Shown here piece after piece: positions 458-51,382 of a DNA stretch of 64,000 nt (its first letter is position 1; the number at the start of each line of letters is the position of its first letter). This stretch comes from Gammaproteobacteria bacterium. GTDB lineage: Bacteria; Pseudomonadota; Gammaproteobacteria; CAKMZV01. The notes beneath the pieces are model-generated. The model had not been told where the DNA came from, did not search any database, and saw only the letters and a program-made list of their open reading frames with translations. Location: assembly GCA_965219665.1 (NCBI GenBank), contig CBDCOD010000019.1, positions 30,070 through 94,069 on the forward strand, read 5' to 3'. The position numbers and the translations under genes are program-made.

Positions 458-1183
458 CTAACTGGTCATACCACCATCAACAATAATTTGCTGCCCTGTA
501 ACCCAAAGATCAGAGGCATCATGGTAGGACTTTATAACACTGACCACTTGCTCAACCTCTCCAATACCTAAGGGATAAATTTCTTTAAAGTGCGCCACTA
601 ACTCTTCACTGTCAAAACTGCTTTTACTCAGGGGGGTGGGCACTGCCCCAGGAAGGATAGAATTAACGCTAACCTTAGGGGCCAGTTCCTTACTTAAAGC
701 ACGCATATAGCCATCTAAAGCCGCTTTAGAAGCAGAGTAAGCTCCTTTCCCTCTAAAACCTCTAATGGCACTAATACTAGAAATAAATAGAATATTAGAT
801 AGAGCGGAATGATTGACAGAGCGTTTCAGCAACGTACGAATTATTTCCACGACACAGTAAAAATTAACACGCATTAATTCATGTAAAGGTTCGGCATGAA
901 TAGATTTAGCAGGCAAGGTTTGATCCTGCCCTGCACAATGAACTAACTTACTGATCAGCGCATTATTAGATTTTAGAAAATAAGATAAAGTTTCTGCAAT
1001 GAACTGTGTATTGCTTAAATCACAGACAAAATATAGATGCTTTAGGCCTAACTCGCGCACTACCTCCTGTAATTTTGATTCGTTCCTACCGCTCAAAATC
1101 AACCAGTTATCATCTGCTAAGGCTCTTGCAGTTGCTAACCCTATACCAGAAGTGGCGCCCGTAATAAGCGTGTATGGTTGCAT
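458..1183 (-). CDS. short-chain dehydrogenase/reductase (SDR) family oxidoreductase
   Basis: N-terminal TGATSGIGLATA Rossmann motif and a YxxxK-type catalytic region (YSASKAAL). 241 aa. Confidence 0.8.
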   Translation of the reverse strand: MQPYTLITGATSGIGLATARALADDNWLILSGRNESKLQEVVRELGLKHLYFVCDLSNTQFIAETLSYFLKSNNALISKLVHCAGQDQTLPAKSIHAEPLHELMRVNFYCVVEIIRTLLKRSVNHSALSNILFISSISAIRGFRGKGAYSASKAALDGYMRALSKELAPKVSVNSILPGAVPTPLSKSSFDSEELVAHFKEIYPLGIGEVEQVVSVIKSYHDASDLWVTGQQIIVDGGMTS

Positions 1184-1398
1184 TATTTTTTTGATTGAAT
1201 CAACTGTTTAATGTCTGCAAGTGTTCGCATATTTTCCAAATCGCTGTTAAATAGTTGAACATCATAGTCTCTATCTATACAGTCTAGTAAAGATAATATA
1301 GCCAGCGAGTCCCAAGAATCAAATCCAGCCAACTGATCGGTATCGGCAACACTGTCTACTTCTAAAATATCTGCCATTTCAATATTTAATTTTTCCAT
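1183..1398 (-). CDS. acyl carrier protein
   Basis: 71 aa and acidic. DSWDSLAILSLL matches the DSL phosphopantetheine-attachment motif. Confidence 0.7.
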   Translation of the reverse strand: MEKLNIEMADILEVDSVADTDQLAGFDSWDSLAILSLLDCIDRDYDVQLFNSDLENMRTLADIKQLIQSKK

Positions 1399-2477
1399 GA
1401 TTTTTCTCCTGAGTATTCTATTACTTCACATGTTTGAAGATTCCCTAAGTCCCAAATCATCCCTCCCCAAGTTAACCCAACTCCAAAGCCTGCAAGCATT
1501 AACCTAATATTCTTTTTACCTTGCAACTCCTCCGGCAAGTTATGTGACAAATTAATTGGAATCGTCACAGAATTGGAATTGCCAAACCTTTCTACAATAT
1601 TATTAGGCACTTTACTCCTTGATACGCCTATTTTGTCTGCTAATTTTTCCAGCATAAATCTATTGGGCTGATGGAAAATATAAAAATCCACATCATCCTT
1701 AACTAGAGATGCAGTTTCTAAAATATCATTCACCATCTTAGGGACCTCTGATTGAACAAAAGCAAAAACTGATGCCCCTTCCATACTTAAATTGTCAAGA
1801 CTTCTGAAATTACCATCGCCTGTATCTTGTGCAATAGCCGTATTTTTCGTTGAGGGCATCCTAAAACCACCTGCCGGTATTTTTAGCGCCAAAGCGTCTT
1901 TCCCACGATTTTTGGTAAAAACTTGTATGGTATTAGCATCAGGATCATTCTCTATAATGGTCACCGCTCCTGCATCCCCAATAATAGGGTAACTATTGCG
2001 ATCTTGCTTATTGACCTTACGGCTCAAAGTATCTCCATTCAGTAAGGCGACACAATTAATACCCTCACTTTCTAATAACATAAATGCTTGCTGTAACCCC
2101 ACGATATATCCAGCACAACCATGGTTAATATCAAAGCATAAACAATCTTCTTTTAATCCGAGTTTCCCGTGCAAGATAGAACTGGTTGGAGGAAGAAAAT
2201 GGTCTGGTGTATGCGAGATAAAAATTAAAGCATCTACTCGTGACGCATCTAATTCACTATCTGATACAAGTTTATTAAATCCAAACTCACATAAATCTGA
2301 TGCTGTGATGCTGTCAGGGGCAATGCGATGTTCATCAAAACCCATAATTTCCTTGAGCTTTAATGATTTTTCTCTTGAAAAAGTATATTGATCCAATTCA
2401 TCTATGAATCTTGATACCTGGCTTGGAACCACCGCAACCAAATGCGTTATTTTTTTTCCACTGAATGACAGATACAT
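1386..2477 (-). CDS. 3-oxoacyl-ACP synthase III (KAS III/FabH-like)
   Basis: 363 aa. Thiolase-fold motifs: active Cys in HGCAGYIVGLQ, and C-terminal AGFGVGLTWGGMIW typical of FabH. Confidence 0.8.
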   Translation of the reverse strand: MYLSFSGKKITHLVAVVPSQVSRFIDELDQYTFSREKSLKLKEIMGFDEHRIAPDSITASDLCEFGFNKLVSDSELDASRVDALIFISHTPDHFLPPTSSILHGKLGLKEDCLCFDINHGCAGYIVGLQQAFMLLESEGINCVALLNGDTLSRKVNKQDRNSYPIIGDAGAVTIIENDPDANTIQVFTKNRGKDALALKIPAGGFRMPSTKNTAIAQDTGDGNFRSLDNLSMEGASVFAFVQSEVPKMVNDILETASLVKDDVDFYIFHQPNRFMLEKLADKIGVSRSKVPNNIVERFGNSNSVTIPINLSHNLPEELQGKKNIRLMLAGFGVGLTWGGMIWDLGNLQTCEVIEYSGEKSWKN

Positions 2478-2478
2478 T

Positions 2479-2709
2479 CTATTCCTTTATATATTTTTGT
2501 AGCATTGACTCAATGGCATCTATATTCATAAAATTCTCTGGAACAATATCCACGCCATCTATTGAGATATTAAATTCTTTATCTAAGCACGAAACTAATG
2601 AAATTAAATCAAATGAGTCCAACAATCCCTCCTCAATAAAGTTGTCATTTTTGCCAAAATCAAACTCAGGCCTAAGAGACTCTAAAATGCCTAATATCTT
2701 ATTTTTCAT
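2479..2709 (-). CDS. acyl carrier protein (second copy)
   Basis: 76 aa. GLLDSFDLISLV contains the DSxxL phosphopantetheinylation site. Confidence 0.7.
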   Translation of the reverse strand: MKNKILGILESLRPEFDFGKNDNFIEEGLLDSFDLISLVSCLDKEFNISIDGVDIVPENFMNIDAIESMLQKYIKE

Positions 2710-2747
2710 ACTATAATTTTTTTCTTAATTAATGACACACTCTAAAA

Positions 2748-3470
2748 CTACCTATCAGTCAAAACACGGTTTAATGTTTTGAAGAACGCCGTGTATACCC
2801 CTAAGGAATCTATGTTTTTTTTAAGACGTTCACGAAAAAAACCTTCCTTTAATGAGTGATAAGTATATACCACACTAGAAAACATTATATCCATTTTTTT
2901 TAATTCTCCAAAATGGCTAATTTGCACTAAATTCTCCTCGAATAATTGCTGACAATTCACAATAGATTGTGTCATGAGCCAACTAAAATTTCTCTGCTTA
3001 ATTATGAATTTTTTCTGAAAAAATACATTGCCTGTATCAACTGCTTGACCAGGTAAAATCTGGTGCAATGTAGCGCCATATTCTCGTTGATTATCACATA
3101 AGGCTGCAGCCACACATATTTCTGCAACTCCTCTATAGTCTTGCACCAGACCATTATGTATATTTATGAGCGGAGCCTTAATAGACGATAAGCACTGATC
3201 ACCAATAATGAATCGGTTATTGATAGAGAATAGAATATCTGCTTGCTTCTCACTCTGATAACGAACTAATACTTCGTCTACATCACGCCCAACAACCTCT
3301 AAAACATCTACTTCTAATTTTTTAAGAATAGGCAACGCACTATCTGCTAGTGGCACCAATACAAAACCAATCTTATAGCCACTGTTCTTTGAAAATTGTA
3401 CAGCCTTTGCCAGTAGGGAACCCGAACCAATAAATCCTAGTAAATTCCCCGTATCATGTACAGAACGCAT
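2748..3470 (-). CDS. formyltransferase-fold protein (putative N-acyl/formyl transferase for an amino sugar)
   Basis: INIHNGLVQDYRG matches the N-x-H-x-S/G-LLP-x-YRG formyl_trans_N signature. Sits between an ACP and an adenylating enzyme. Confidence 0.55.
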   Translation of the reverse strand: MRSVHDTGNLLGFIGSGSLLAKAVQFSKNSGYKIGFVLVPLADSALPILKKLEVDVLEVVGRDVDEVLVRYQSEKQADILFSINNRFIIGDQCLSSIKAPLINIHNGLVQDYRGVAEICVAAALCDNQREYGATLHQILPGQAVDTGNVFFQKKFIIKQRNFSWLMTQSIVNCQQLFEENLVQISHFGELKKMDIMFSSVVYTYHSLKEGFFRERLKKNIDSLGVYTAFFKTLNRVLTDR

Positions 3471-4972
3471 TAAATATAAAGCTCTTTTAAAGCCACTCTA
3501 TCAATTTTCCCATTATGATTAAGCGGCATTGTTTCAACCCGCTCAGATCTACTCGGGAGCATATATTTTGGCAATTGATTATGCAGTCCCAGCACAATAT
3601 CTTTGAATGCCTTATGCGCATTAGATTCATAAATCAGCACAATGTTTTTCTTTTCCGAATCATATAGAATGCACGCTTTATCAATGCCTTCCAGTGCTAA
3701 AACAGCTGCTTCAATTTCCCCAAGCTCAATACGGTAACCCATATGCTTGATTTGAAAATCCTTGCGCCCTTGGTACATCAGTTCACCCAACTCGTTATAG
3801 CACACCACATCACCTGTGCGATAAATTTGCTCAGGATAATGTGAGTTTAATGGATTTTGCGTAAAAGCCTGCTGAGTTTTCTCGGGATTGTTGTAATACC
3901 CCAGTGCCAACGAACTGCCCCTAACACAAAGCTCTCCTAAAACACCTGGCTTGGTTACTAACTGATCCTGCTCATCTAAAACAAGAATATCTGTGTTTCT
4001 ACAAGGATATCCAATTGGGAGTGCCTCCGAATGTAGATAATCGCGCTCTAAAATTATATAAGTACAATCAACAGTAATTTCTGTAGGACCATACAAATTT
4101 GAAAAAAGGGAATCCCTTAAATGTTTTTTCCAATACATATAAACTTTACTGGGCATCACCTCACCAGCAAATAAAACATGTGATAGCTTAGTAGGCTTTT
4201 TTTCAGAAAAAATATCCAATTTACAAATATTCGACATTATTGATGGAACCCAGAAAATGAATGTAACCTGCTTTTCTATAACGTATTCGATCAACTTAAC
4301 CGGAAACATGAATAATTTATCTGGTATCAAACAGAGTTTAGCTCCAGTAGCAAGCATTAAATAAATGTCTAGAACAGAATTATCGAATACAAATGGGGCC
4401 TGATTGCCTAGCACAAATTTTTCATGTACATGATAAGTTTCTGTTGCCCAATTTATGTAATCTATTACTGACCTATGTGCAACAACTACTCCCTTAGGAG
4501 AACCAGTGGACCCTGATGTGTTAATCAAATATGCTGGATCGGTGTCAATATTTCTATCAAAGTCAATCTCATCACTGCTAGAAGCATCAATATGCTCAAT
4601 ACATATCATTTTTTGACTGCTCGCATCATCCAACAAATATTGATATTTTTTTTCAGAAAAAATAAATACTGGATTAATATTATTCAGTATAGATATGATC
4701 CGAGCTTGAGGGTTAAAAGTATCTAAGGGAACATAAAATCCCCCTGCATATAACACGCCTAAAAATGCCTCTATCGCCTGTATAGATTTGGGCAAAAGCA
4801 CGGCAACAGGTTTGTTCCTTGTAAGCCCTTGTGATTTTAGGTAGCAACCGATTTGCTGCGCTTTTTGCCGTAAGGTCTTAAAGGTAACAGTACCATTTGG
4901 GTCTTCAACAGCAACTTTATCAGGAAAACGATGCGCTGTATCTTCTAAATATTCCAGTACATTTCTTTGCAT
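3470..4972 (-). CDS. AMP-dependent synthetase/ligase (adenylation enzyme, probably loads the adjacent ACP)
   Basis: 500 aa. NTSGSTGSPKGVVVAH AMP-binding P-loop and C-terminal YRTGD...GRKDFQIK motifs. Confidence 0.85.
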   Translation of the reverse strand: MQRNVLEYLEDTAHRFPDKVAVEDPNGTVTFKTLRQKAQQIGCYLKSQGLTRNKPVAVLLPKSIQAIEAFLGVLYAGGFYVPLDTFNPQARIISILNNINPVFIFSEKKYQYLLDDASSQKMICIEHIDASSSDEIDFDRNIDTDPAYLINTSGSTGSPKGVVVAHRSVIDYINWATETYHVHEKFVLGNQAPFVFDNSVLDIYLMLATGAKLCLIPDKLFMFPVKLIEYVIEKQVTFIFWVPSIMSNICKLDIFSEKKPTKLSHVLFAGEVMPSKVYMYWKKHLRDSLFSNLYGPTEITVDCTYIILERDYLHSEALPIGYPCRNTDILVLDEQDQLVTKPGVLGELCVRGSSLALGYYNNPEKTQQAFTQNPLNSHYPEQIYRTGDVVCYNELGELMYQGRKDFQIKHMGYRIELGEIEAAVLALEGIDKACILYDSEKKNIVLIYESNAHKAFKDIVLGLHNQLPKYMLPSRSERVETMPLNHNGKIDRVALKELYI

Positions 4973-4976
4973 TACT

Positions 4977-5807
4977 TTATATTTTTTTAACTATTTTTCG
5001 CAAAATAAAAAACGGCAACCACCATATTTTTTTCCACCTAAACACACGACATGCAGCGCAGTCAAGACTATCGCAAATCAGTATTTTAGGATTCTGAGAA
5101 ACTACCTGGTAGTCAATTTCATATGCTTTCCTCGCGTCTATCGATAACGTGTACGCTCCTCTCACCCAACCTATATTAAGCACTTCTTGCTTTATATATT
5201 CAGGATATAGGCGCCCGAATGTACTACTGCAACCTCCTGGATCCATCCGCGTAAACACCTTGTCTTTAACCTGAACCTTCAGAAAAAATCTATGCCAATA
5301 TTGGCGATATAACTTTAGATCTTGCTCTACCAGATGGGTTACAAAACCTGGATAGTCGGACATTCCCATCAGCAGGATTTTCCCCTTCATCGCAATCACA
5401 CGCCGTGCAAACTCATACGCTCCAGCGTTTTCATCAAGACCACTGACAATATGTTTCGCATTTGGGCCAATAGCAACAACTGAATTGGTGGGGTGTTGTG
5501 ATCGATAGGATTTTTTATCCTTTAGCATGGCATTAGCAAATGCCCCTGTATAAGCAGGTTGGGTGCCATCAAAAAACGGTAATTTACGATTTAAGACAGA
5601 AAATTTGGGCCGCGTAAAAGCCAACGCAACAAATGTTCCTCCTCCCTGAGCAAAATATTGCTTAAAAATATTCACATAGTCAGCACGTTTAAAGCCACTA
5701 ACTAAGCCAAATTTTTCTAGACTAAGATTGATTAACACCGTATCGTGAGGCTTGACATCAAGTGCAGCCAATTCAGAAAAAAAAGCATCTATATTAAAAG
5801 TATTCAA
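4977..5807 (-). CDS. AAC(3)-family N-acetyltransferase-like protein
   Basis: RSQHPTNSVVAIGP closely resembles the conserved RSxHPxxSxVAxGP block of aminoglycoside 3-N-acetyltransferases. 276 aa. Confidence 0.5.
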   Translation of the reverse strand: MNTFNIDAFFSELAALDVKPHDTVLINLSLEKFGLVSGFKRADYVNIFKQYFAQGGGTFVALAFTRPKFSVLNRKLPFFDGTQPAYTGAFANAMLKDKKSYRSQHPTNSVVAIGPNAKHIVSGLDENAGAYEFARRVIAMKGKILLMGMSDYPGFVTHLVEQDLKLYRQYWHRFFLKVQVKDKVFTRMDPGGCSSTFGRLYPEYIKQEVLNIGWVRGAYTLSIDARKAYEIDYQVVSQNPKILICDSLDCAACRVFRWKKIWWLPFFILRKIVKKI

Positions 5808-5903
5808 TGGTTGCTCCTCAAGCGGCTCACCTCACCTATCCTATTATTAATAATCAGCTATCTCTATACTAGCTAGTCTGGTATACACGCTTTATTGCTT
5901 AGT

Positions 5904-6971
5904 TTAATAGCCTAACGGTAATGAGATGGTTTTTTCATCACGCGCAGCGCGATAGGCGGCAATTAAGAGTTCAAGCGATTTTAATCCCTCTCTACCATCG
6001 GTTTCAGGCTCACATTCACCGCGTAATACTTCAATAACATTTTTGTAATATAGCGGATGGCCGAATCCGTAAACAGACGTGGTTTCATAGTTTGCCTGTA
6101 ATACCTCTTTGTCATAAGGCTGCTCATCTGCAAACTCCCAATGCTGAATATCATTAACAGCGACCCCACCTACACGCACAGTGCCTTTTTCACCCAGAAT
6201 GGTAATAGATCCCTCATAGTTTTTAGGATACGTTAGCATAGTAACATTCATTGAGCCTAAAGCACCGCTGCACCACTTAATATTAAGGACACAAGAATCC
6301 TCAGCCTCAATATCACGATCTAAGGTTGCTGCCATAGCCTGAATTTTTTCTACTGGTCCTATTAACCAATCAATTAAATCAATATAGTGACTTGCCTGAT
6401 TCATCAACGCGCCACCATCCAACTCCCAGGTTCCGCGCCAGTCAGCAGCATCGTAGTAGGCTTGAGGGCGTGTCCAAAATACATTTAAGTTCACCATAAA
6501 AATGCGCCCAAAACGCTCTTCTTCTATGGCGCGCTTTAATAACTGAAGTGTTGTATTCCTTCTGTTCTGCTTGACAACAAACAGGCGCACATTGTTCTGC
6601 TCACACGCTTTTACCATATCTACTCCATCTTGCCAGCGGGTAGCCATAGGCTTTTCACTAATGACATGCACACCTGCTGCTGCAATTTCAATCGCTTGTT
6701 CTGGATGCATCCCAGACGGAGTACAAATAGATACTACATCAAGATTTTCTGATTTAAGCATATCAGTTATAGTGGCATATCCTGTGATTTGCAGTTGTTC
6801 TGTAACAGACTGTAATGCTGCGGCATCACTGTCACAGACAGCCACCAAATCAAAATCCTTTGAGTGCGCTTCAATGGCATCAAAGTGATTCTTGGCAATA
6901 CGACCACACCCAACAATAGCAATACGAATTTTTCGATCTTTAATTATGGGATAGCGCATTAAAGCCTCCAA
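5904..6971 (-). CDS. Gfo/Idh/MocA-family NAD-dependent oxidoreductase (WbpB-like sugar dehydrogenase)
   Basis: RIAIVGCGRIAKNHF Rossmann motif at the N-terminus. 355 aa. Neighbours a nucleotide-sugar dehydrogenase. Confidence 0.8.
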   Translation of the reverse strand: MEALMRYPIIKDRKIRIAIVGCGRIAKNHFDAIEAHSKDFDLVAVCDSDAAALQSVTEQLQITGYATITDMLKSENLDVVSICTPSGMHPEQAIEIAAAGVHVISEKPMATRWQDGVDMVKACEQNNVRLFVVKQNRRNTTLQLLKRAIEEERFGRIFMVNLNVFWTRPQAYYDAADWRGTWELDGGALMNQASHYIDLIDWLIGPVEKIQAMAATLDRDIEAEDSCVLNIKWCSGALGSMNVTMLTYPKNYEGSITILGEKGTVRVGGVAVNDIQHWEFADEQPYDKEVLQANYETTSVYGFGHPLYYKNVIEVLRGECEPETDGREGLKSLELLIAAYRAARDEKTISLPLGY

Positions 6972-8227
6972 GTTGGGTTCTCAACAATATTTTTAACATC
7001 CATAATAATAGGGGCACCATGTGATATCTTTTCATAATCTGCCATCGTATATGCCTTAAACTGCCTATGCGCCACGGCAACAATAATAGCATCATATTTC
7101 TTATCTGATTGCATAGGGTCATCAATAATGCCATGCTTATACCACTTACTTTCTTCAGTCGTCTGCACCCAAGGATCATACACATCAACCTGCATACCAA
7201 ATTCTTTTAACTCTTCTATCACATCAACGACTTTCGTATTACGCATATCTGGGCAGTCTTCTTTGAAAGTAACCCCCAAAATTAAGATACTCGTAGCACT
7301 TTCGACCGCTTTTCCGGCCTTAGTCATACATTTAATTGTCTCACGGACAATATGCCTACTCATATCATTATTGATTTGCCGAGATGCCAAAATCAAGTTA
7401 GGCTTATAACCCAATTCTACTGCCTTAAATGTCAAATAATATGGATCAACCCCTATACAGTGCCCACCAACCAGACCTGGTAGCAGTTTAATAAAATTCC
7501 ATTTCGTACCTGCTGCCTCTAATACTTCATTCGTATCAATACCCATTTTCCCAAAAATGAGTGCTAGCTCATTTACTAAGGCAATATTGACATCGCGTTG
7601 AGTATTTTCAATCACTTTGGATGCCTCAGCCACTTTGATACTAGAAACCAAATGCGTCCCAGCCGTAATGATTTTTTTATACAGACTATCAACCTTTTGT
7701 GCTATTGCAGGAGTAGATCCAGAGGTTACCTTAACAATATTTTCAACCGTATATTTTTTATCACCAGGATTAACACGTTCTGGGGAATATCCACAGTGAA
7801 AATCTTGATTAAACTGCAAGCCTGATGCCTTCTCCAATTCAGGCACACATACCTCCTCTGTCACGCCAGGATAAACAGTAGATTCGTAAATCACTATATC
7901 CCCTGATTGCAACACTGAACCAACCGTTTGAGAGGACTGAATGAGCGGTGTTAAATTAGGCTTGTTCGAAGCATCTATAGGTGTAGGCACTGTTATAATA
8001 TAAATATTGCATACCTGTGCCTCTTCAATATCCGTACAATAATGTATATTGCTCTTTACCTCAGCCAGAACCGCATTCTCAATCTCCAAAGTGCGATCAT
8101 GACCATTCACTAATTCATCTACACGCTTCTGGTTTATATCAAAGCCTACTACTGGCATTTTTCGAGCGAAAGCCACTGCCAGTGGCAACCCTACATAACC
8201 TAAGCCGATCACACAAACCTTATCCAT
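6959..8227 (-). CDS. nucleotide-sugar dehydrogenase (UDP-GlcNAc/UDP-ManNAc 6-dehydrogenase, WbpA/WecC-like)
   Basis: VIGLGYVGLPLAVAF N-terminal NAD motif, the catalytic Cys region GGHCIGVDP, 422 aa. Confidence 0.8.
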   Translation of the reverse strand: MDKVCVIGLGYVGLPLAVAFARKMPVVGFDINQKRVDELVNGHDRTLEIENAVLAEVKSNIHYCTDIEEAQVCNIYIITVPTPIDASNKPNLTPLIQSSQTVGSVLQSGDIVIYESTVYPGVTEEVCVPELEKASGLQFNQDFHCGYSPERVNPGDKKYTVENIVKVTSGSTPAIAQKVDSLYKKIITAGTHLVSSIKVAEASKVIENTQRDVNIALVNELALIFGKMGIDTNEVLEAAGTKWNFIKLLPGLVGGHCIGVDPYYLTFKAVELGYKPNLILASRQINNDMSRHIVRETIKCMTKAGKAVESATSILILGVTFKEDCPDMRNTKVVDVIEELKEFGMQVDVYDPWVQTTEESKWYKHGIIDDPMQSDKKYDAIIVAVAHRQFKAYTMADYEKISHGAPIIMDVKNIVENPTWRL

Positions 8228-8294
8228 CCTGCCTCTCTATTTTATAGAGTATTGTCCTCACATTACCCAATATACTATGTATCATAGCCGCATT

Positions 8295-9140
8295 CTATAG
8301 CCCTGCAGCTATAACCGTATTCTCCATTAACTGAGCAATTGTCATGGGTCCCACTCCACCAGGGACCGGAGTAATCCATGCAGCACGCTGACATGCACTC
8401 TCAAAATCCACATCGCCATAAAATGTACCATCATCACTACGATGGATACCAACATCTACCACCACGGCGCCTTCACGAATCCAAGCGCCTTGAACCAAAT
8501 GACGTGCACCCGCTGCAACCACCAGCACCTCAGCACGTTCAACATGGGAACGCAAATCTTGCACTGTTTGTGTACAAACAGTAACCGTTGCCCCAGCATT
8601 AAGCATCTCTAATACCATTGGTCGCCCAACAATACGAGAAGCACCGATAATCAACACATCTTTGCCTTGCAAATTAATATCATAATAAGCCAACAAGTGC
8701 ATCACACCACGAGGAGTACAAGGAGACAACACAGCTTTATTTAATGCCAAACTCCCCATACTGTGTGGAACAAAGCCATCTACATCTTTGCTCACTTTAA
8801 TGCGCTCAATCACCCGATCAGAATTCATATGCGGCGGCAATGGCAATTGCACCAAAATGCCATGAACTTGCTCAGTCTCATTGAGCAAATCAATCAATTC
8901 TAACAGTTCACCTTCTGTCGTTTTTGCATTCAAATGATAGGCATGCGACTGGATGCCTATTTTTTCACAAGTGCGTTCTTTATTATTAACATAAACCCTA
9001 GAAGCGGCATCACCTCCAACTAGAATCACTGCCAGACCAGGTCTGCGCTTACCTTGATCTACCGCACGACTGATTTTTTCTTCTAAAATTTTTAATTTTT
9101 CATCACGCACCACAACGCCATCTAAAATTTTTGCACTCAT
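8295..9140 (-). CDS. folD: bifunctional methylenetetrahydrofolate dehydrogenase/cyclohydrolase
   Basis: 281 aa. ILVQLPLP and GKDVLIIGASRIVGRPM motifs are typical of FolD. Confidence 0.9.
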   Translation of the reverse strand: MSAKILDGVVVRDEKLKILEEKISRAVDQGKRRPGLAVILVGGDAASRVYVNNKERTCEKIGIQSHAYHLNAKTTEGELLELIDLLNETEQVHGILVQLPLPPHMNSDRVIERIKVSKDVDGFVPHSMGSLALNKAVLSPCTPRGVMHLLAYYDINLQGKDVLIIGASRIVGRPMVLEMLNAGATVTVCTQTVQDLRSHVERAEVLVVAAGARHLVQGAWIREGAVVVDVGIHRSDDGTFYGDVDFESACQRAAWITPVPGGVGPMTIAQLMENTVIAAGL

Positions 9141-9149
9141 ATTCCTTAG

Positions 9150-12023
9150 TTACACTCCTAATTTTTCAAGTTTGTACCCCTGAGCACTACACCGTTCTGC
9201 GCTCGCCATATTACTAATCACTGCTCTAGAACAATCTGCTGTCAAATACAGCTCCCCAGTACGCCTTAAATCATTAATAGAAACATCCAGAATGCGCTCC
9301 CTATAAAGCGAACGCCACTCCAAGTCATGGCCATGCAATGCACCAAAAAACGTACGGCTTGCTTCTGCAGCAGGCGTTAGAGGCGCATCCATTTTGGCAA
9401 TCGCACCCAAAATTGCCGCATCTAATTGTTTAGTGTCATGAGTTTGACTGACCAACCAGTCAATTGAATTATCAAAGTCCTGGAGTGTATCTTCCAAACG
9501 AGGATCGCGATAGGAGAAGAAACGGAAGCTAGCAGTGTCAGCACTATACTGCGCTCCCCCTCCATAAGCCCCTCCCTGCTCGCGGATAGCAGTGTGCAAG
9601 AACCCATTGCGTAAGAAATGCGATAAAACAACAAGTGCCGCTGCATCTGGGTGAGAAGCTGGAACTGCTGCGTGTGCCTGTCCGCAATAATGAACTTGTG
9701 TAGACATTGTCCAGACTACATTCTGTTGCTTGGGAGAAGACTGCTTAAATAGAGGATGCCCTGAGATAGATTGAGATTGAGGAACCACATGCTGTTGCAT
9801 AATATTGACGCCTTCCTCATCCCCTATTAGCAACCACAATGGCTTATCACATGCAAACTTACGGTATAGATTTTCTAATTGCTGCGCCAAAATTTCTGTT
9901 CCACTATTTTGCAAGCTATTATGCAGTTTAATTATCCGTTGGACTGCCTTCAGACCCGACCACTGATAATTAAATTGGGCATGAGCATTGAGCCCACTTG
10001 CTGCAGCATCCATAGCTAATAGATGCCCCTTCTGCGCTACACCTTGCTCACTTTGGTAGCGCAGCTGAGCAAACAACTCTCCTAACCGCTCATGCTCATC
10101 AAAATGTACTGTGGAACGCAAATCGCTAATATACTCAACCAATTTAGGCACATAACGATTAAGCGCCTTCCCTGAAAAGACTAAATAAGCATTATGTTTT
10201 TCCACATCCTCAGGGCGCATACCAATATGTGCATTCATGCTAATGCCACCCGTATAGCGCGCCAATGCAATTTGTGTCTGCTTGTAATCGCGCCCAGCAG
10301 AACCCAACTGAGCCGCCACATTGATAAGCCACGGCAATGTTTCTATTTCTTGAGCATTTAAGGATGGCATAGGCTGAATAGCGCGAATATATGACAACCC
10401 ATTCGTACGCACTGAAAAAACCTGAGCACTGTTAGCAATTGGCTGTACTTCCGTAATCGTGCGCTCAACATCTTTTACGTGGATTTTAGGCAATACTGAT
10501 ACATCTTCTTCTGCTTCTTGACGCATCTGCAGTTGCTGATTAAATTGCACTATATCCTGTTTCTGTTGCTTTTCCATCTGCTGCGAAACTTGTTGTAAGC
10601 GCTGCTGCTCCTTCGCGAGCATTTGTTTAGATTTTTTAAGGCTAGGCACTAACTGTAGTGATACCCTGTGCAAATTATTGAGTAGCCAACTTTGTACTAA
10701 TTTCGGAATAAAACGTGGATCTGTACACTCTTTGCGTAGCCTCTCTAGTGCCGCATCGATATCTACACGATCAACCACTGAACCACCATGAATTGCTGCA
10801 GTTAAGCCCGACAAAATAAGCCCTAAACCATAAGGGTACCCCCCTCCAGCTATTTCACGCTGCCCTAGCTCTAACTGGTGCATGACCCCTTCTACTAATG
10901 CTACATCTATACCACCCTCTACCACCTTCTCCAATTCTGATAGAACCAAGGCCTCCAAAGACTCTATATGTCCCGCTTCACAGCCTTCTAAGCCAACTGT
11001 AAACTGCATTTGTCTATGCTCATCTTCTAGCCCGCACAATGGTGACGGTGTCTGCCCTAAGTCACTGTTCTCTAAAGCCACACGTAACGGTGAGCCACCA
11101 TTATCTAATAGCACCCCACTTAACAGGTGGGCACGCAATACCTCATTAATATCCGCGCTCTCTCCCCACAACCAAGATATAACCAAATGTGTCCTCTGGG
11201 CGCTATCCTCCTCATCGAAGGCATACTCTCCTTGTGCAGATATTGGGGTAGTAATAGGTTTTTCTAAAGGCACTAACGGAACCGCCTCAGCCGGTTCAAA
11301 AGCCTTTAGAACCCGCTTTTCAAAAACTGCTTGTAGATTTGTAGGGGTTTCCGAACCAAAAGTTAGAAATATCGCATTAGACGGATGATAATGCTTTTTA
11401 TGGAAATCGACCAACTGTTGATAGGATAAATCTGGAATGGCTTCAGGCTCTCCTCCACTATTGTAATGATACGTCACAGTCGGGTATAAATAACTACACA
11501 ATTCGTGCCACAACACCCGTGCAGGAGTGCTCATCGCCCCTTTCATTTCATTAAATACGACTCCCTTATATACCAATTCTGATGCCGTATCGCCACTGGT
11601 AGCAAAGTCATAACGCCAACCTTCTTGCCTAAAATCTTGCTCAGATAATATAGGAAAGAATGCCGCATCCAAATACACATCTAATAAATTGTAAAAATCA
11701 GTACGATTACAACTGGCAAAAGGATATGCTGTCCAGTCACTGGCGGTGAAGGCATTCATAAAGGTATTCAGAGAACGCCGTGTCATCAGAAAGAATGGGT
11801 CACGCACTGGATAACGCTTGCTGCCACATAACACCGTGTGCTCTAAAATATGCGCAACACCGGTAGAATCAGTCGGTACCGTACGAAACGCTACCATAAA
11901 GACCTGCTCCTTACTATCGCAGGCAAAATGGTAATGCGAACAGCCTAACCGCTGATGCTTATAGTGCTGTAACTCAACACCGATTGCCTCAATTTCTTTC
12001 TTATCAACTAATGAAAAACTCAT
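9150..12023 (-). CDS. M16-family zinc metallopeptidase (PreP/pitrilysin-like, M16C)
   Basis: 957 aa. Inverted zinc motif HILEHTVLCGS (HxxEH) near the N-terminus. Confidence 0.8.
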   Translation of the reverse strand: MSFSLVDKKEIEAIGVELQHYKHQRLGCSHYHFACDSKEQVFMVAFRTVPTDSTGVAHILEHTVLCGSKRYPVRDPFFLMTRRSLNTFMNAFTASDWTAYPFASCNRTDFYNLLDVYLDAAFFPILSEQDFRQEGWRYDFATSGDTASELVYKGVVFNEMKGAMSTPARVLWHELCSYLYPTVTYHYNSGGEPEAIPDLSYQQLVDFHKKHYHPSNAIFLTFGSETPTNLQAVFEKRVLKAFEPAEAVPLVPLEKPITTPISAQGEYAFDEEDSAQRTHLVISWLWGESADINEVLRAHLLSGVLLDNGGSPLRVALENSDLGQTPSPLCGLEDEHRQMQFTVGLEGCEAGHIESLEALVLSELEKVVEGGIDVALVEGVMHQLELGQREIAGGGYPYGLGLILSGLTAAIHGGSVVDRVDIDAALERLRKECTDPRFIPKLVQSWLLNNLHRVSLQLVPSLKKSKQMLAKEQQRLQQVSQQMEKQQKQDIVQFNQQLQMRQEAEEDVSVLPKIHVKDVERTITEVQPIANSAQVFSVRTNGLSYIRAIQPMPSLNAQEIETLPWLINVAAQLGSAGRDYKQTQIALARYTGGISMNAHIGMRPEDVEKHNAYLVFSGKALNRYVPKLVEYISDLRSTVHFDEHERLGELFAQLRYQSEQGVAQKGHLLAMDAAASGLNAHAQFNYQWSGLKAVQRIIKLHNSLQNSGTEILAQQLENLYRKFACDKPLWLLIGDEEGVNIMQQHVVPQSQSISGHPLFKQSSPKQQNVVWTMSTQVHYCGQAHAAVPASHPDAAALVVLSHFLRNGFLHTAIREQGGAYGGGAQYSADTASFRFFSYRDPRLEDTLQDFDNSIDWLVSQTHDTKQLDAAILGAIAKMDAPLTPAAEASRTFFGALHGHDLEWRSLYRERILDVSINDLRRTGELYLTADCSRAVISNMASAERCSAQGYKLEKLGV

Positions 12024-12113
12024 TACAACCCTTACAATTTTTGACGATAAATCACAAAATTATCATTTTGTAGATTGTTACTTCTAATTTTAATTTTAGG
12101 AGGGCGAGCCTTC

Positions 12114-12797
12114 TTAAAACTGCCAGCCTTGATTTCTGAGTAGGCCCGCCAGTTTAGGCCAACGCGTGCGTTTTTCAGGAAAATGCGATAACTGAAAGAT
12201 TCTGGCACCGCTAAATTTCTTAATGGCTTCCATGTTATCCATCAACAGCTTAGACTCTCCTGCCGCATCGTTGACTATAACACTATGCAGTGCAATACCT
12301 TCCTGCTGCAAGACATTGAGTGCTAACAAAGCATGATTGATACACCCTAGCCTGTTACGCACAACCAAAACTGCAGGCAATTTTAAGCGCTTTGCCAAGT
12401 CGGCACATAATCCATCTTCTGCCATTGGTGAGTACACACCACCTGCCCCCTCAACCAGCAAGAAATCGTCCGCTGTAACACCTCGCAAAACCGCATCCTG
12501 TAACTGTGTAATCGTTATGGGAGTCCCTGCTCTACGAGCTGCCAAGTCAGGCGCAACTGCATCCTCAAAAGCAAAGGGAGTTACCATATCTGGATTATTG
12601 TCAGTACCACTTGCCTCTATGAGAGCCTGCGTATCTTCGCACATGAGCGTCTTATCTGCCTGAGAGAGGCAGCCTGATGCAACTGGCTTGCGTGGCACCA
12701 CCCTATATTTCTGCCCACGCAATAAGTGTGCTATAGCAGCAGCAACTTCCGTTTTTCCTACTTCAGTATCGGTCCCTGTAACAAACAAACCCTGCAT
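12114..12797 (-). CDS. bioD: dethiobiotin synthetase
   Basis: LFVTGTDTEVGKTEV P-loop and a BioD-like fold, 227 aa. Confidence 0.85.
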   Translation of the reverse strand: MQGLFVTGTDTEVGKTEVAAAIAHLLRGQKYRVVPRKPVASGCLSQADKTLMCEDTQALIEASGTDNNPDMVTPFAFEDAVAPDLAARRAGTPITITQLQDAVLRGVTADDFLLVEGAGGVYSPMAEDGLCADLAKRLKLPAVLVVRNRLGCINHALLALNVLQQEGIALHSVIVNDAAGESKLLMDNMEAIKKFSGARIFQLSHFPEKRTRWPKLAGLLRNQGWQF

Positions 12798-12818
12798 CAG
12801 GCAATAGAAAGTATAGCG

Positions 12819-13694
12819 TTAACCCAACAAAATACGCTGAATGTCAAAATAGCGACCTTGTATGCGCTGCACGATTTCACTAGGCAAAATGGGGCCTGGT
12901 GGCGTTTTATCCCAATCAAGTGTCTCTAAGTAGTCTCGTAGAATTTGCTTATCAAAACTTTCAGGCGACGTGCCCACCTGATAATGCTGCACATCCCAAA
13001 AGCGCGAAGAATCGGGTGTTAGTGCCTCATCCATAAGCACCAAATTATCATCCTCATCTAATCCAAATTCAAACTTAGTGTCTGCCATAATAATTCCACG
13101 CTCTAAAGCATACGCTGCCGCCCAGTCATATAACTGCACACTAATATCCCGTATTTGCTTAGCACGCCCCTCACCTAATATATCAACAGTCTGCTCAAAT
13201 GAAATATTTTCGTCATGATCACCCACTGCTGCTTTAGTGGATGGTGTATATAGGGTGTGGGGCAGTTGTTGCGCCTGCTGTAATCCTTGCGGCAATTCAA
13301 GCCCACAAACCGCGCCTGTTTTTTGATAATCCTTCCAACCCGATCCAATTAAATAACCACGAACAATTGCTTCTACAGGTAGTGGCTTTAAGCGCTGTAC
13401 GACCATTGCATGACGTCCTACACGTTCTACCTCACCAGCTGTCAGCACAGAACTTAAATCAAAGTCCGTTAATAGATGGTTAGGGACAATATGGCTTGAT
13501 TTAGCAAACCAAAATTTAGAAATATCGGTCAACACTATCCCTTTATCTGGGATAAGGTCGGGCAGCACTACATCAAAAGCTGAAACTCGGTCCGTGGACA
13601 CCATTAGCAATTTATCATCACCAACAGCATATATATCACGAACTTTCCCTTGGTTAATTAACGGAAGTGAGTCAATTTGGAATGGATTAGACAT
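12819..13694 (-). CDS. purC: phosphoribosylaminoimidazole-succinocarboxamide synthase (SAICAR synthetase)
   Basis: 291 aa. GKVRDIY...DRVSAFD motifs of PurC. Confidence 0.9.
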   Translation of the reverse strand: MSNPFQIDSLPLINQGKVRDIYAVGDDKLLMVSTDRVSAFDVVLPDLIPDKGIVLTDISKFWFAKSSHIVPNHLLTDFDLSSVLTAGEVERVGRHAMVVQRLKPLPVEAIVRGYLIGSGWKDYQKTGAVCGLELPQGLQQAQQLPHTLYTPSTKAAVGDHDENISFEQTVDILGEGRAKQIRDISVQLYDWAAAYALERGIIMADTKFEFGLDEDDNLVLMDEALTPDSSRFWDVQHYQVGTSPESFDKQILRDYLETLDWDKTPPGPILPSEIVQRIQGRYFDIQRILLG

Positions 13695-13945
13695 AGAAAT
13701 AATATAAAGATTAATAAGGCCAACACAAAGCTGCCATTATACTTCTTGGACCGCTCCTCTGCCAGTACGCTTCATCATGTAGTTAAGAACAACAGGAAGC
13801 CACCATCAACACGTCATACTCTGAAACGCACCTTTTCACTGATTGCCTCGAATGCGACATCTAGTGTCGCATTCGAACACTTGACCGCTTGATAATAACG
13901 AATAATTGTGCTAAAAATAGCATCCTTTTCAACTAACCGAACAAA

Positions 13946-16976: not shown

Positions 16977-18017
16977 TCAGGCAAACCCTTTAGGGTTTTG
17001 GCTTTGCCAACGCCATGCATCTTCACACATAGCCTGCAAACCTCGTTTTGCTGTCCAGCCTAATAGCTGGGTAGCACGCGTGGTATCAGCAAAACAGATG
17101 GCGGTATCGCCACTGCGTCTACCTACTACTTCAAAAGGAATTATCTTACCACTTGCCTGCTCAAAGGCACGCAGTACCTGTAAAACACTGTAGCCATGCC
17201 CGACACCAAGATTGCAAACAAGCGGCTGACCCGAAAAATCCTTTAGAGCATCCAATGCTGCACTATGCCCTTCAACCAAATCCATAACATGGATGTAATC
17301 GCGCACACCAGTGCCATCTAAAGTTTGATAATCATCGCCGTATATAGATAATTTACTACGCTGACCCATTGCCACTTGAGCGATAAACGGCATCAGGTTA
17401 TTGGGCGTTCCCTGCGGCATTTCACCTATTACGCCACTGGCATGTGCCCCAACTGGATTAAAGTATCGTAGCAGCGCTATTTGTAAGCTGTGGTCACTAC
17501 TTGACATATCCATCAAAATATCCTCAACCATCTTTTTAGACTGTCCATAAGGATTGATAGCTGAAGTAGGACAATCTTCGTGTAAAGGAGGTTCAACTGT
17601 CCCATACACGGTTGCTGATGAGCTAAATACTAAGCGCTTAATACCACATGCCTGCATAGCACGCAGCAGACTGATACTCCCTGCAACATTGTTGTCGTAA
17701 TACAATTCTGGCTTCTCTACCGACTCACCAACTGCTTTAAGCCCAGCAAAATGTACAACAGCCTCTGGCTTATGTATATGCATAATATCAATCAAACGCT
17801 GATAATCACGCACATCTGCATGATAAAAACTAATAGACTTCTGGGTTAAACTGCAAACACGCTTGAGTGAATCGCGGTAGCTATTGCACAAATTATCAAC
17901 TACAACTATGCGGTACCCTAATTCTAAAAAATGCAGTACAGCATGCGAACCAATATAGCCAGCGCCGCCAGTAATAAGTAGAGTAGATGAAGTAGTCATA
18001 ATACTAAGATTGTCCAA
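16977..18017 (-). CDS. galE: UDP-glucose 4-epimerase
   Basis: LLITGGAGYIGSH Rossmann motif, YGQSK catalytic YxxxK, 346 aa. Confidence 0.85.
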   Translation of the reverse strand: MDNLSIMTTSSTLLITGGAGYIGSHAVLHFLELGYRIVVVDNLCNSYRDSLKRVCSLTQKSISFYHADVRDYQRLIDIMHIHKPEAVVHFAGLKAVGESVEKPELYYDNNVAGSISLLRAMQACGIKRLVFSSSATVYGTVEPPLHEDCPTSAINPYGQSKKMVEDILMDMSSSDHSLQIALLRYFNPVGAHASGVIGEMPQGTPNNLMPFIAQVAMGQRSKLSIYGDDYQTLDGTGVRDYIHVMDLVEGHSAALDALKDFSGQPLVCNLGVGHGYSVLQVLRAFEQASGKIIPFEVVGRRSGDTAICFADTTRATQLLGWTAKRGLQAMCEDAWRWQSQNPKGFA

Positions 18018-47525: not shown

Positions 47526-48662
47526 TTAACCTGAGCAGGTCAACTGCACACTACTCTGTATGCTGTAACCCATATCTATCTTACAAATACGGTAATAACG
47601 CGCTATAGACTCCCCTAATATATCCGTTAAGCGCTTATTGATTTTTGACACCACTTCAGATATACGGGGGGATAATTCGTGCTGATCACCTTCACCTACC
47701 CCCCATGTCTTCTTTACATCCTGAAAACGCCCTGCACTAGTAAGTGGCCTTAATAATTTAAGGAACAACGCTGTATCAAAAGCAGTCCAACTGACCCGCT
47801 CATTCACCTCAGTCTTACATAACAACAACTGATAAAAAGCAGCCTGTAGTGGCGGTAACTCCAGTGTTGTACCACCATGCAACATAAAGGACGCTTTCCC
47901 CCTCTCCCAATGAATGCTGGGGGGGTGCTGCATTTGTCTTATATAGCTTTTAATTTCCCCAAAACGCGTAATACGCTGTAAAAACGCTTGCGATAAATTA
48001 TCACGCGCTGACAAAATCGGCAAACTAATCAGTGAAACACGCGCCTCTTTAGCATCTAACGCTTCACCGCTGGCTGTCACAACGGTCTCTTCTCTTGGAT
48101 AATAAAAATCAGAGCACTCATACTGCTTATCAACCAAAACATGCGACAACACATCCTGTGGACGCGCATAAATAGACATTAAATAGCCCAGATAAAAGCT
48201 CATCGTTTTGCGCCCCCCTGCAAGTGAGGCATGCAAAATGCTATCGGTATCAGCCGTAAATTTTTGCACTAAACTGGCAAGCAAATCAGCACATAACACA
48301 CTGTTCTCCACACTATTAACATCCTCAATAATACCATCTGTTGACATAATAGAATGAATCTTAAGCCAATCTTTAGGCATATCCTTTAGCCCAAAATCGG
48401 CACAAAATCGGCGCAAAACACCCCCTTGATCCAGCACACCCAATCGCTGCACACCCACCAGTGTGGTTACCACATGGATCTCAGTTGGTATAAAAGCAGG
48501 CTCTTGCTTAACTAAAGCATACAGTGTCTCCGTAATAACAGATGGACTAACACCTGCCACACACAATAAAATTTTCCGTTCAGTATTCATTTTTAGTACT
48601 GGTTTGCATTCGTATTTACAGCTGGTATTACAGCCCTTTTTATTATCCTGCATTATCGTCAT
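47526..48662 (-). CDS. CARF-domain protein (Csx1/Cas_NE0113-like), C-terminal domain unassigned
   Basis: ILLCVAGVSPSVITETLYAL is the hallmark CARF N-terminal motif, and ASLAGGRKTMSF is the second CARF motif. No obvious R-x4-6-H HEPN motif in the C-terminal ~150 aa. The true start may be the internal Met at 48590. Confidence 0.7.
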   Translation of the reverse strand: MTIMQDNKKGCNTSCKYECKPVLKMNTERKILLCVAGVSPSVITETLYALVKQEPAFIPTEIHVVTTLVGVQRLGVLDQGGVLRRFCADFGLKDMPKDWLKIHSIMSTDGIIEDVNSVENSVLCADLLASLVQKFTADTDSILHASLAGGRKTMSFYLGYLMSIYARPQDVLSHVLVDKQYECSDFYYPREETVVTASGEALDAKEARVSLISLPILSARDNLSQAFLQRITRFGEIKSYIRQMQHPPSIHWERGKASFMLHGGTTLELPPLQAAFYQLLLCKTEVNERVSWTAFDTALFLKLLRPLTSAGRFQDVKKTWGVGEGDQHELSPRISEVVSKINKRLTDILGESIARYYRICKIDMGYSIQSSVQLTCSG

Positions 48663-48896
48663 TCATTACGACAGCAGCAACGTAATTGCAATAACACGTA
48701 TTATCTAAACTATTGCCCCTTCACACCAGCTTTTCAAATAACCACAACATTTCCATCTATTTTGACAACATTGTCCTTTTTTTACAGCAAACTTGCGCTT
48801 ATTGAACTTGCTTCGATGCTCAAGTATAGTGCCGCCCAAGTTTGAGCAGAATACAACTTGCTTCATTTATAAAAAGCCACAACGGAGAAACTCATA

Positions 48897-50621: not shown

Positions 50622-50688
50622 GTTACTTCAAAAAAACCACACTTTTAACCTTAATTTAACGCAAACATCAACCACTATAGGACAAATT

Positions 50689-51368: not shown

Positions 51369-51382
51369 ACGGCACCAAAACT

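Follow-up and report, generated by a model that had tools for sequence, protein, structure and literature searches.

In Porphyromonas gingivalis and Tannerella forsythia, the Wbp/Vim pathway couples a Wbp-type sugar core to a change of N-acyl group. As proposed by Veith et al. (2020), VimE takes off the 2-N-acetyl group of the Wbp product, after which VimA, a FemAB/GNAT-like aminoacyl transferase, adds serine or glycine (PMC7468200). A dedicated acyl-building set is described from the viosamine island of Pseudomonas syringae pv. tabaci (vioS, acp, vioR, vioB), where a β-ketoacyl-ACP synthase III (KASIII), an acyl carrier protein (ACP), a ketoreductase (KR) and one N-acyltransferase (NAT) produce the N-(3-hydroxybutanoyl) viosamine of flagellin (PMC3927599). 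Here we analyze a gene cluster at the left end of a 64,000-nucleotide stretch of a gammaproteobacterial contig (CBDCOD010000019.1, positions 30,070 to 94,069, assembly GCA_965219665.1), which we call the window. The cluster holds WbpA- and WbpB-like genes, a gene for an AAC(3)-fold protein, the start of a VimE-like gene and a cassette that encodes an adenylation (A) domain enzyme, a formyltransferase (FT), a peptidyl carrier protein (PCP1), a KASIII, a second carrier (ACP2) and a short-chain dehydrogenase/reductase (SDR). Its likely task is to N-acylate a diamino uronic acid of the Wbp type with a donor supplied by carrier proteins, the AAC(3)-fold protein being the transferase. The arrangement can be read as Wbp/Vim re-acylation joined to an acyl module of the viosamine-island type and to trans-acting formylation, a decoration that has not previously been described.

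The resemblance to the Wbp/Vim system lies in the sugar core (WbpA and WbpB, with WbpE and WbpD added in sister loci) and in the predicted use of a VimE-type CE4 deacetylase followed by transfer of an amino-acid-containing group onto the freed amine. The differences begin with the transferase, an AAC(3)-fold protein here instead of VimA; the VimA (FemAB/GNAT-like) family is absent from the ten genes of the cluster. The donor would be built on carriers by A, FT, PCP, KASIII, ACP and KR, its capped amine could not serve as a protein-linking amine, and the sister loci carry Wzx, Wzy and Wza-c genes rather than genes of the type IX secretion system. With the viosamine island and with orfB-E of the P. 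aeruginosa PAK glycosylation island, the cluster shares a dedicated KASIII, a small ACP, an SDR and a single NAT (PMC3927599), and some relatives of the cassette lie in flagellin glycosylation islands. Unlike that island, the cluster also encodes an A-domain enzyme, a PCP and an N-cap enzyme, and the pocket of its KASIII is altered. Its NAT has the AAC(3) fold instead of the hexapeptide fold, no VioB-type hexapeptide protein being present in the region, and its predicted acceptor is a Wbp-type uronic acid rather than viosamine.

The first half of the cassette resembles the formylating F-A-PCP initiation module of the linear gramicidin synthetase LgrA in its FT-fold catalyst, A domain and carrier, and the A domains of LgrA are the best solved relatives of the window enzyme. 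In contrast to LgrA, the proteins stand alone, no condensation (C) domain follows, and the partner downstream is a KASIII instead of a module of a nonribosomal peptide synthetase (NRPS). Hybrids of NRPS and polyketide synthase (PKS) modules make statine-type units, that is γ-amino-β-hydroxy acids, by extending an aminoacyl thioester with malonyl and then reducing the keto group. In butirosin biosynthesis, a protecting N-acyl group keeps the γ-amino thioester from cyclizing during transfer of 4-amino-2-hydroxybutyrate (AHBA). The cassette would differ from both by having all parts discrete, a KASIII in place of a modular ketosynthase and a product predicted to decorate a polysaccharide instead of a peptide or an aminoglycoside.

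Recurrence of the cassette in glycan loci

Annotation of the open reading frames (ORFs) with hidden Markov models recovered all nine genes of a preliminary description of the window, each where it had been placed on the minus strand. The list was nonetheless incomplete, as a tenth, VimE-like gene at the left edge had been overlooked (Table 1). Genes for an A domain, a cap enzyme, a PCP, a KASIII, an ACP and an SDR occur together in about 20 loci of other organisms, which represent about a dozen distinct arrangements and hold one dedicated NAT each. Because the cassette recurs in the same order in these loci (given L numbers below), its gene arrangement is not a product of chance. Complete sets with an FT are found in the genomes of Sphingomonas parva, Silanimonas and Roseateles, at 33–59% identity. 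All recovered contexts with a homologue of the AAC(3)-like gene show the order Wzx, AAC(3)-like, A, cap, PCP, KASIII, ACP, SDR and DUF7033/VimE-like, and this block is usually preceded by WbpB, WbpA, WbpD and WbpE (L050–L062).

Other relatives, reached by way of metagenome homologues, fall into two settings. L001 and L005 are flagellin glycosylation islands with fliC/fliD/fliS, a GT41-TPR transferase, a DegT aminotransferase, the cassette, a hexapeptide transferase, a methyltransferase and rpoN. L004, L046, L047 and L048 are polysaccharide loci with glycosyltransferases, an initiating transferase and Wzx. The genes flanking full cassettes encode glycosyltransferases, Wzx, Wzy, DegT or flagellin proteins; among the loci found, the full cassette lies solely in glycan loci and never in a lipid or siderophore context. 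The preliminary description had assigned the ACP-dependent module to the sugar genes and had named a conserved lipid or siderophore home of the ACP, KAS and ligase genes as the finding that would speak against it; the related loci contain no such home, and the assignment holds. The cassette is a rare, conserved and mobile unit tied to glycans, of which we found no description in the literature searched.

The sugar itself is indicated by the two dehydrogenase genes. The WbpA-like protein scores 518.6 bits against the TviB model (cut-off 592) and 396.6 bits against TIGR03026, and is 53–69% identical to the dehydrogenases that adjoin WbpB, WbpD and WbpE in L050, L056, L062 and L066. Its neighbor matches the PDB entries 3q2i (552 bits) and 3q2k (518 bits), which we take to be WlbA UDP-GlcNAcA 3-dehydrogenases of the diacetamido-mannuronic acid pathway, and shows 66% identity to the L050 gene within the WbpB-WbpA-WbpD-WbpE block. 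These matches to profiles and to PDB sequences confirm the earlier view that the cluster makes a sugar of the 2,3-diamino-uronic type. The two enzymes would start the Wbp/Wlb route from UDP-N-acetylglucosamine (UDP-GlcNAc) to UDP-2,3-diamino-2,3-dideoxy-glucuronic acid. All sister loci have both WbpD and WbpE, and WbpB-WbpA-WbpD-WbpE-Wzx lies directly upstream of the same AAC(3)-like gene in sister loci; the corresponding aminotransferase and 3-N-acetyltransferase of the window organism would be expected farther downstream, beyond the window. Two of the related loci (L058, 12649–15880; L052, 14017–15460) have a downstream gene for an asparagine-synthase-like amidotransferase and a HisH/HisF-like pair, which suggests a uronamide or acetamidino modification of the same polysaccharide.

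The AAC(3)-fold protein and its VimE-like partner

The protein encoded at the head of the acylation genes belongs to the AAC(3) fold family (PF02522), and reaches only 41.4 bits against the AAC_3 equivalog model (cut-off 270). Its AlphaFold model has a predicted local distance difference test score (pLDDT) of 86.5. Foldseek comparison aligned the model with AAC(3)-IVa and FrbF over the full-length fold, at template modeling (TM) scores of 0.65–0.76 and 16–24% identity. Whereas AAC(3) enzymes use acetyl-CoA, the window protein lies in a glycan locus and its proposed donor is a carrier-bound acyl group. A search of 5.8e9 proteins returned 22 homologues, all environmental, with 48–72% identity plus one 99%-identical copy. 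His158 is invariant and, judged by the region in which it lies and not by a residue-by-residue superposition, would correspond to the catalytic histidine of AAC(3)-IVa (His154). Four cysteines, C193, C245, C250 and C253, are invariant in 19 of 19 members of the subfamily, the last three forming a CxxxxCxxC motif near the C terminus; the pattern suggests a structural metal site.

The tenth gene leaves the window after 137 codons. Over these N-terminal residues only, tblastn gives 28% identity (E 9e-13) to the DUF7033 protein of L050, and the match to Pfam DUF7033 (26.8 bits) is just below the cut-off of 27. Matched along its entire length, the complete L050 homologue reaches 175 bits against the NCBIfam VimE model (cut-off 440), which represents a UDP-2,3-diacetamido-2,3-dideoxy-glucuronate deacetylase. 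At 40% identity or more, a VimE-like gene follows the AAC(3)-like gene in 13 of 17 metagenome loci, that is, in all those with sufficient downstream DNA.

Seven loci (L066–L070, L072 and L076) have the AAC(3)-like and VimE-like genes but lack the carrier cassette. Their gene order is WbpA-WbpB-WbpD-WbpE-Wzx-AAC3-VimE-like, and their AAC(3)-like proteins are more distant (40–44% identity; 26% in L076). Since the pair occurs without the cassette, it forms a core attached to the Wbp pathway, and the cassette is an optional supplier of a special donor. The cassette-free loci presumably carry out a simpler deacetylation and re-acylation with a donor bound to CoA. We also considered that the VimE-like enzyme might be a deprotector that removes a formyl or acetyl cap; the cassette-free pairs rule this out.

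What the AAC(3)-fold protein does is best seen from the genes that share or exchange its position. L047 is collinear with the window (69% identity in the A domain, 79% in KASIII and 67% in the SDR) and has a VioB-like hexapeptide transferase in the exact slot of the AAC(3)-fold gene. In L088 (1260–4400), a 331-residue PF02522 protein is followed by KASIII, ACP and SDR beside a Wzx flippase, as also in the similar loci L084, L086, L091, L095 and L098; this type amounts to a viosamine-island-type trio with an AAC(3)-fold protein instead of the hexapeptide transferase. A PF02522 protein also stands beside an FT-A-thioesterase set in L009, from a Pontixanthobacter metagenome-assembled genome (MAG; 7108–13846), in the order GT4, two ORFs without assignment, cassette-type FT, 103-residue ORF, A domain, 4HBT thioesterase and PF02522, with no KASIII; it is possible that this set is a minimal module for N-formyl-aminoacyl decoration. 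Because the protein fills a hexapeptide-transferase slot in L047, accompanies acyl-building genes in the trios and in L009, and is paired with VimE in Wbp-linked loci, we assign it as the probable terminal N-acyltransferase. It most likely moves the finished acyl group from a carrier protein to a sugar amine, and not simply an acetyl group, as the preliminary description had it. The combination of this transferase with an FT of the window type was seen only in the window and in near-identical copies on MAG contigs of 132 kb and 1.56 Mb.

The adenylation domain and its carrier

The enzyme that the preliminary description had called an AMP ligase, and had taken to load an acyl group, is instead an NRPS-type amino-acid A domain. 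It scores 358 bits against TIGR01733, above the cut-off of 317, and among solved proteins the A domains of LgrA come closest to it (223 bits). Alignment to the GrsA core, a procedure that returned the correct code (DAWTIAAICK) for GrsA as a control, yielded DNLFLALVDK as its specificity code; both Asp235 and Lys517 are present. Asp235 is the residue of A domains that binds the α-amine of the substrate. A further 15 loci share this code, even where overall identity drops to 38%; variants are DISYFGFVIK in L052 and L053 and DGVFCALVIK in L058 and L059. We found no description of DNLFLALVDK in the literature searched.

An A domain of this type implies that the acyl group is derived from an amino acid. 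This changes part of the earlier interpretation: the acyl module is indeed an unusual one and its product would not be plain acetate, but it would not be a plain hydroxy fatty acyl group either. We take the code to resemble a serine code in which the two hydroxyl-binding residues are replaced by Phe and Ala, and also a glycine code. The carrier encoded with the A domain, PCP1, is DltC-like, and its phosphopantetheine serine motif, LLDSFD, is invariant in 21 homologues. The A, FT and PCP proteins of the window are encoded by three separate ORFs, and no C domain was seen among them.

A proposed N-capping slot with varied occupants

The stand-alone FT is 15–20% identical to solved formyltransferases. 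Its AlphaFold model (pLDDT 95.4) has ArnA, WbkC and Fmt as top structural matches, with WlaRD and QdtF among the others. All 36 aligned homologues keep Asn103, His105 and Asp145, which line up with the catalytic Asn102, His104 and Asp140 of ArnA. Members of the family are rare: scanning 185,579 species genomes with a sequence pattern recovered 42 loci, none of them from the window's own organism, and in 41 of these an A-domain gene adjoins the FT (tblastn with the window proteins). In P0003, a 312-residue protein from Logan assemblies, the FT is fused to a DltC-like carrier (C-terminal ...GLLDSFDLISL...), although a gene-calling artefact is possible.

The FT also follows an A-PCP gene in actinomycetes (L010–L041 and L043; Nocardia, Streptomyces, Kitasatospora and Rhodococcus). 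These loci mostly lack a KASIII, apart from one weak match in L034. No glycosyltransferase was seen in L023, the only one of them that was annotated, which also holds a P450-like fragment, a luciferase-like monooxygenase and a ComB-like phosphatase (6864–12088). They probably represent a small natural-product pathway that involves a formylated amino acid. The N-terminal 420 residues of the Nocardia A-PCP ORF have no family or structure match and might stem from an ORF called too long in high-GC DNA.

In other cassettes the position of the FT is taken by different proteins: a RimI-like GNAT of 265–270 residues between A and PCP in L052, L056, L060 and L062, a more canonical formyltransferase of 292 residues that does not match the window FT in L050, and a 261-residue protein with no Pfam match in L058. 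In L054, a second kind of RimI-like GNAT, of 195 residues, follows the SDR. The A-domain code DNLFLALVDK is unchanged through most of these swaps. The FT of L047 is only 46% identical to that of the window, whereas the neighboring genes of that locus reach 61–79%. This variety of occupants and the low FT identity in L047 make the slot look like a hot spot of exchange. The occupant looks like a generic enzyme for a small acyl cap, formyl or acetyl, on the amine of a carrier-bound amino acid.

The preserved triad, the adjacent A domain, the PCP fusion and the replacement by GNATs or another FT point to the FT as an N-capping enzyme and make it unlikely to be what the preliminary description had proposed, an N-acyltransferase that uses acyl-ACP in the manner of RfbN. 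The tetronate module of Vibrio cholerae O1, WbeK-O, consists of an ACP, an acyl ligase, an Fe-alcohol dehydrogenase (Fe-ADH), RfbN and a hexapeptide transferase. RfbN, to which the preliminary description ascribed a formyltransferase fold, is LuxE/LuxC-like; the papers on tetronate in the literature searched give no description of its fold. Neither an Fe-ADH nor a member of the LuxC/E family was seen among the ten genes of the cluster.

Condensation and ketoreduction

The KASIII retains the equivalents of Cys112, His244 and Asn274 (E. coli FabH numbering), which are invariant in all copies examined. Its closest solved relative is 4efi, an uncharacterized Burkholderia KASIII. A role as an acyltransferase of the CerJ/ChlB6 kind was considered and is not favored, the decarboxylating Cys-His-Asn triad being intact. 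In the pocket of extended cassettes, position 142 is Leu and position 157 is Ile, Val or Ala, in contrast to the larger Tyr142 and Phe157 of the simple KASIII-ACP-KR trio type. In L058 and L059, the altered A code is accompanied by an altered pocket (Thr87 and Ala157). As support for an aminoacyl primer, the residues of the pocket count as weak. The ACP2 gene always lies between KASIII and SDR, with the serine of its WDSL motif invariant in 16 homologues, and the SDR is kept after ACP2 in all cassettes.

Proposed pathway and alternatives

Protein identities, catalytic motifs, conserved synteny and modularity are matters of observation, and they can be arranged in a scheme of three layers: a sugar core, a swap of the N-acyl group and an acyl-donor cassette. 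We regard the chances of this three-layer explanation as evenly balanced. In the second layer, the VimE-like deacetylase would remove an N-acetyl group of UDP-2,3-diacetamido-2,3-dideoxy-glucuronate (UDP-GlcNAc3NAcA), by analogy the one at C-2, and the AAC(3)-fold transferase would re-acylate the freed amine. The third layer would be a dissociated assembly line of NRPS/PKS-like character. The A domain would charge PCP1 with a small neutral amino acid, probably Ala or Gly, and the FT would formylate the amine of the bound amino acid from N10-formyl-tetrahydrofolate, like the F domain of LgrA. KASIII would then accept the formyl-aminoacyl group as primer instead of acetyl-CoA and condense it with malonyl-ACP2. 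Reduction of the 3-keto group by the SDR would give a 4-formamido-3-hydroxyacyl-ACP2 (pentanoyl if the amino acid is Ala, butanoyl if it is Gly), from which the AAC(3)-fold enzyme would deliver the acyl group to the sugar. The formyl cap would prevent the γ-amino thioester from cyclizing to a lactam or tetramate. An uncapped γ-amino thioester would cyclize, so that capping is chemically sensible.

What we infer in this scheme is which amino acid is loaded, that KASIII is primed by aminoacyl-PCP, at what point the cap is added and whether N-2 or N-3 accepts the acyl group. The linear chemistry, with its swap to an aminoacyl primer, is the most parsimonious reading and stands slightly below an even chance. 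The complete proposal, in which a dissociated NRPS–PKS hybrid makes an N-capped statine-like unit that reaches the 2-amino group of a 2,3-diamino-uronic acid by means of an AAC(3)-fold NAT and a VimE-type deacetylase, is plausible but tentative, and we would rather bet against it than for it by a modest amount.

Several points weigh against the scheme. Priming of KASIII by an aminoacyl-PCP is proposed on the model of known KASIII-like enzymes whose acyl substrates are bound to an ACP. The substrate of the A domain is probably a small neutral amino acid, Ala or Gly, as judged by comparison with canonical specificity codes rather than by a predictor. The co-variation of pocket and A code is inconsistent, because L052 and L053 change the code (DISYFGFVIK) while their KASIII pocket is the same as that of their relatives. 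No homologue of WbpE, WbpD or Wzx is present in the 64-kb window (tblastn with WbpD and WbpE of L050), so the acceptor sugar of the window organism is deduced from its relatives. The literature searched contained nothing relevant on 4-acylamido-3-hydroxyacyl substituents of glycans, and we know of no glycan that bears the predicted one. Finally, the two halves of the cassette might be used in parallel, since KASIII-ACP-KR (P. syringae, L088) and FT-A with a PF02522 NAT (L009) exist separately.

Such parallel use would supply two donors, N-formyl-aminoacyl-S-PCP1 and 3-hydroxybutanoyl-S-ACP2, for two amines (for example N-3 and N-2) or for two sugars. Its appeal comes from the free-standing sub-modules just mentioned and from the fact that 3-hydroxybutanoyl is a common N-acyl group. 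An N-formyl-L-alanyl group is, moreover, a substituent of the GlcNAc3N-uronamide in the O-antigen of V. anguillarum O2 (PMC10059132). Two donors would need two transferases, however, and each cassette has one dedicated NAT. L001 and L005 each pair a single DegT aminotransferase with a single NAT, which suggests one amine to acylate, the sub-modules are never separated in the roughly 20 loci, and the extended-type KASIII pocket is systematically unlike that of the simple trio. We therefore consider parallel use viable but unlikely. A dipeptide-like product, the alternative nearest to the idea of the preliminary description, would arise if the FT-fold protein or GNAT joined 3-hydroxybutanoyl-ACP2 to the amine of aminoacyl-S-PCP1, giving an N-(3-hydroxybutanoyl)-aminoacyl group for transfer to the sugar. 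N-(3-hydroxybutanoyl)-alanyl groups do occur on amino sugars of several O-antigens, GNAT-fold enzymes can take acyl-ACP donors, and a single NAT would be enough. But the invariant Asn-His-Asp triad of the FT is typical of folate-dependent formyl transfer, and we know of no formyltransferase-fold enzyme that uses acyl-ACP. The slot accommodates five or more small-acyl transferases with distant or no relationship to one another, which is hardly to be expected of a specialized enzyme that must dock two carriers, and in the actinomycete loci the FT family is paired with A-PCP mostly where there is no KASIII. This makes the dipeptide-like route improbable.

The remaining alternatives detach parts of the cassette from one another. 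If the FT were an ordinary sugar N-formyltransferase acting on a UDP-amino sugar, the A/PCP and KASIII/ACP/SDR sets would serve other decorations. The structural matches to ArnA, WbkC, WlaRD and QdtF are what this would lead one to expect, yet L004 contains a bona fide sugar N-formyltransferase, with an N_formyltrans_C domain, besides the cassette FT. The apparent FT-PCP fusion and the actinomycete FT genes next to A-PCP, where no glycosyltransferase was seen, also argue against it, and a GNAT in the slot would pointlessly re-acetylate a freshly deacetylated sugar; we judge this reading to be slightly more improbable still. Least credible is that the carrier genes are part of a pathway for lipids, siderophores or Dlt-type D-alanylation and are neighbors of the sugar genes by chance. 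The A domain and PCP1 do resemble DltA and DltC, and KASIII, ACP and FabG are families of fatty-acid synthesis. This idea is already contradicted by the restriction of the full cassette to glycan loci and by the translational coupling of the cassette genes with the AAC(3)-like and VimE-like genes. No DltB (MBOAT)- or DltD-type gene is present among the families annotated in the cassette loci, and the A enzyme scores 329 and 312 bits against the DltA models, below their cut-offs of 476 and 560.

Genomic setting

The cluster is a minus-strand series of ten head-to-tail ORFs that runs from folD to the left window edge. The WbpA-like gene comes first, 67 bp downstream of folD. The ORFs nearly abut or overlap, several of them by one to a few bases, which indicates a single operon. 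As the tenth ORF leaves the window, only part of the locus is contained in it; a metagenome scan for its leftward continuation returned nothing closer than 68% identity. The G+C content of the cluster is 36–41%, versus 43–45% in the housekeeping genes to its right (folD, M16 peptidase, bioD, purC and isocitrate lyase), and low G+C relative to the flanks is typical of exchangeable glycan loci. The region is most likely the promoter-proximal part of a surface-polysaccharide locus. No ops/JUMPStart element was found near the cluster, promoter-like sites at the cluster were not enriched relative to shuffled sequences, and terminator-like sites were enriched about twofold, none of them interpretable.

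Two other features of the window are listed in Table 1. A gene for an NAD-dependent epimerase/dehydratase lies 9 kb from the cluster, amid housekeeping genes (isocitrate lyase, an M23 peptidase, gpmI and gpsA), and could encode a UDP-sugar 4-epimerase for surface glycans. Farther to the right, AT skew is strongly positive and GC skew negative where a type III-B (Cmr) CRISPR-Cas region lies.

Table 1. Features of the 64,000-nucleotide window and the matches on which their assignments rest
Feature	Position	Strand	Length (aa)	Basis
DUF7033/VimE-like sugar N-deacetylase, N-terminal part	1-411	minus	137	ATG at 411; ORF leaves window
FabG-like SDR ketoreductase	458-1183	minus	241	adh_short and KR domains; FabG models about 118 bits
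Second acyl carrier protein, ACP2	1183-1398	minus	71	Weak ACP model matches, E about 6e-4
KASIII (FabH-like) condensing enzyme	1386-2477	minus	363	ACP_syn_III and its C-terminal domain
DltC-like peptidyl carrier protein, PCP1	2479-2709	minus	76	PP-binding and DltC model match
Stand-alone formyltransferase, FT	2748-3470	minus	240	Formyl_trans_N, Pfam 33 bits
Stand-alone NRPS-type amino-acid adenylation enzyme, DltA-like architecture	3470-4972	minus	500	TIGR01733
AAC(3)-fold (PF02522) protein	4977-5807	minus	276	Antibiotic_NAT 64 bits
WlbA/WbpB-type UDP-GlcNAcA 3-dehydrogenase	5904-6971	minus	355	Gfo/Idh/MocA domains
WbpA/TviB-like UDP-GlcNAc 6-dehydrogenase	6959-8227	minus	422	Pfam UDPG_MGDP_dh N, central and C domains
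folD	8295-9140			
NAD-dependent epimerase/dehydratase	16977-18017		346	
Type III-B (Cmr) CRISPR-Cas region	47526-62297			
Cas_NE0113/Csx1-like protein	47526-48662	minus		
Cas10/Cmr2	52529-54493			
Cmr3	54490-55572			
RAMP protein of Cmr region	56868-57743			
SPFH/Band 7 protein of Cmr region	58192-59127			
Card1-like CARF endonuclease	59552-60589			
Two ORFs of Cmr region	60586-62297			No family match

Implications for glycan N-acylation

N-acyl groups of glycans set serotype, phage receptor specificity and immune recognition, and the genes for most of the unusual ones are unknown. The loci compared here point to a toolkit with three modular components, namely an acyl-donor module, a swappable N-cap and a swappable transferase of either the hexapeptide or the AAC(3) fold. 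Where the acetyl group that comes with UDP-GlcNAc must be replaced, a deacetylase joins them. This is more specific than a hydroxyacyl group in place of acetate, and the predicted product is testable. If the linear route is correct, it would define a new class of glycan N-acyl substituent, with exact masses that can be predicted for flagellin glycans and capsules. It would also give a native role outside resistance to the AAC(3) fold, in relatives of clinically important resistance enzymes. The FT would be a trans-acting counterpart of the formylation domain of NRPSs, a free-standing enzyme that formylates an aminoacyl carrier and that may be of use in NRPS engineering.

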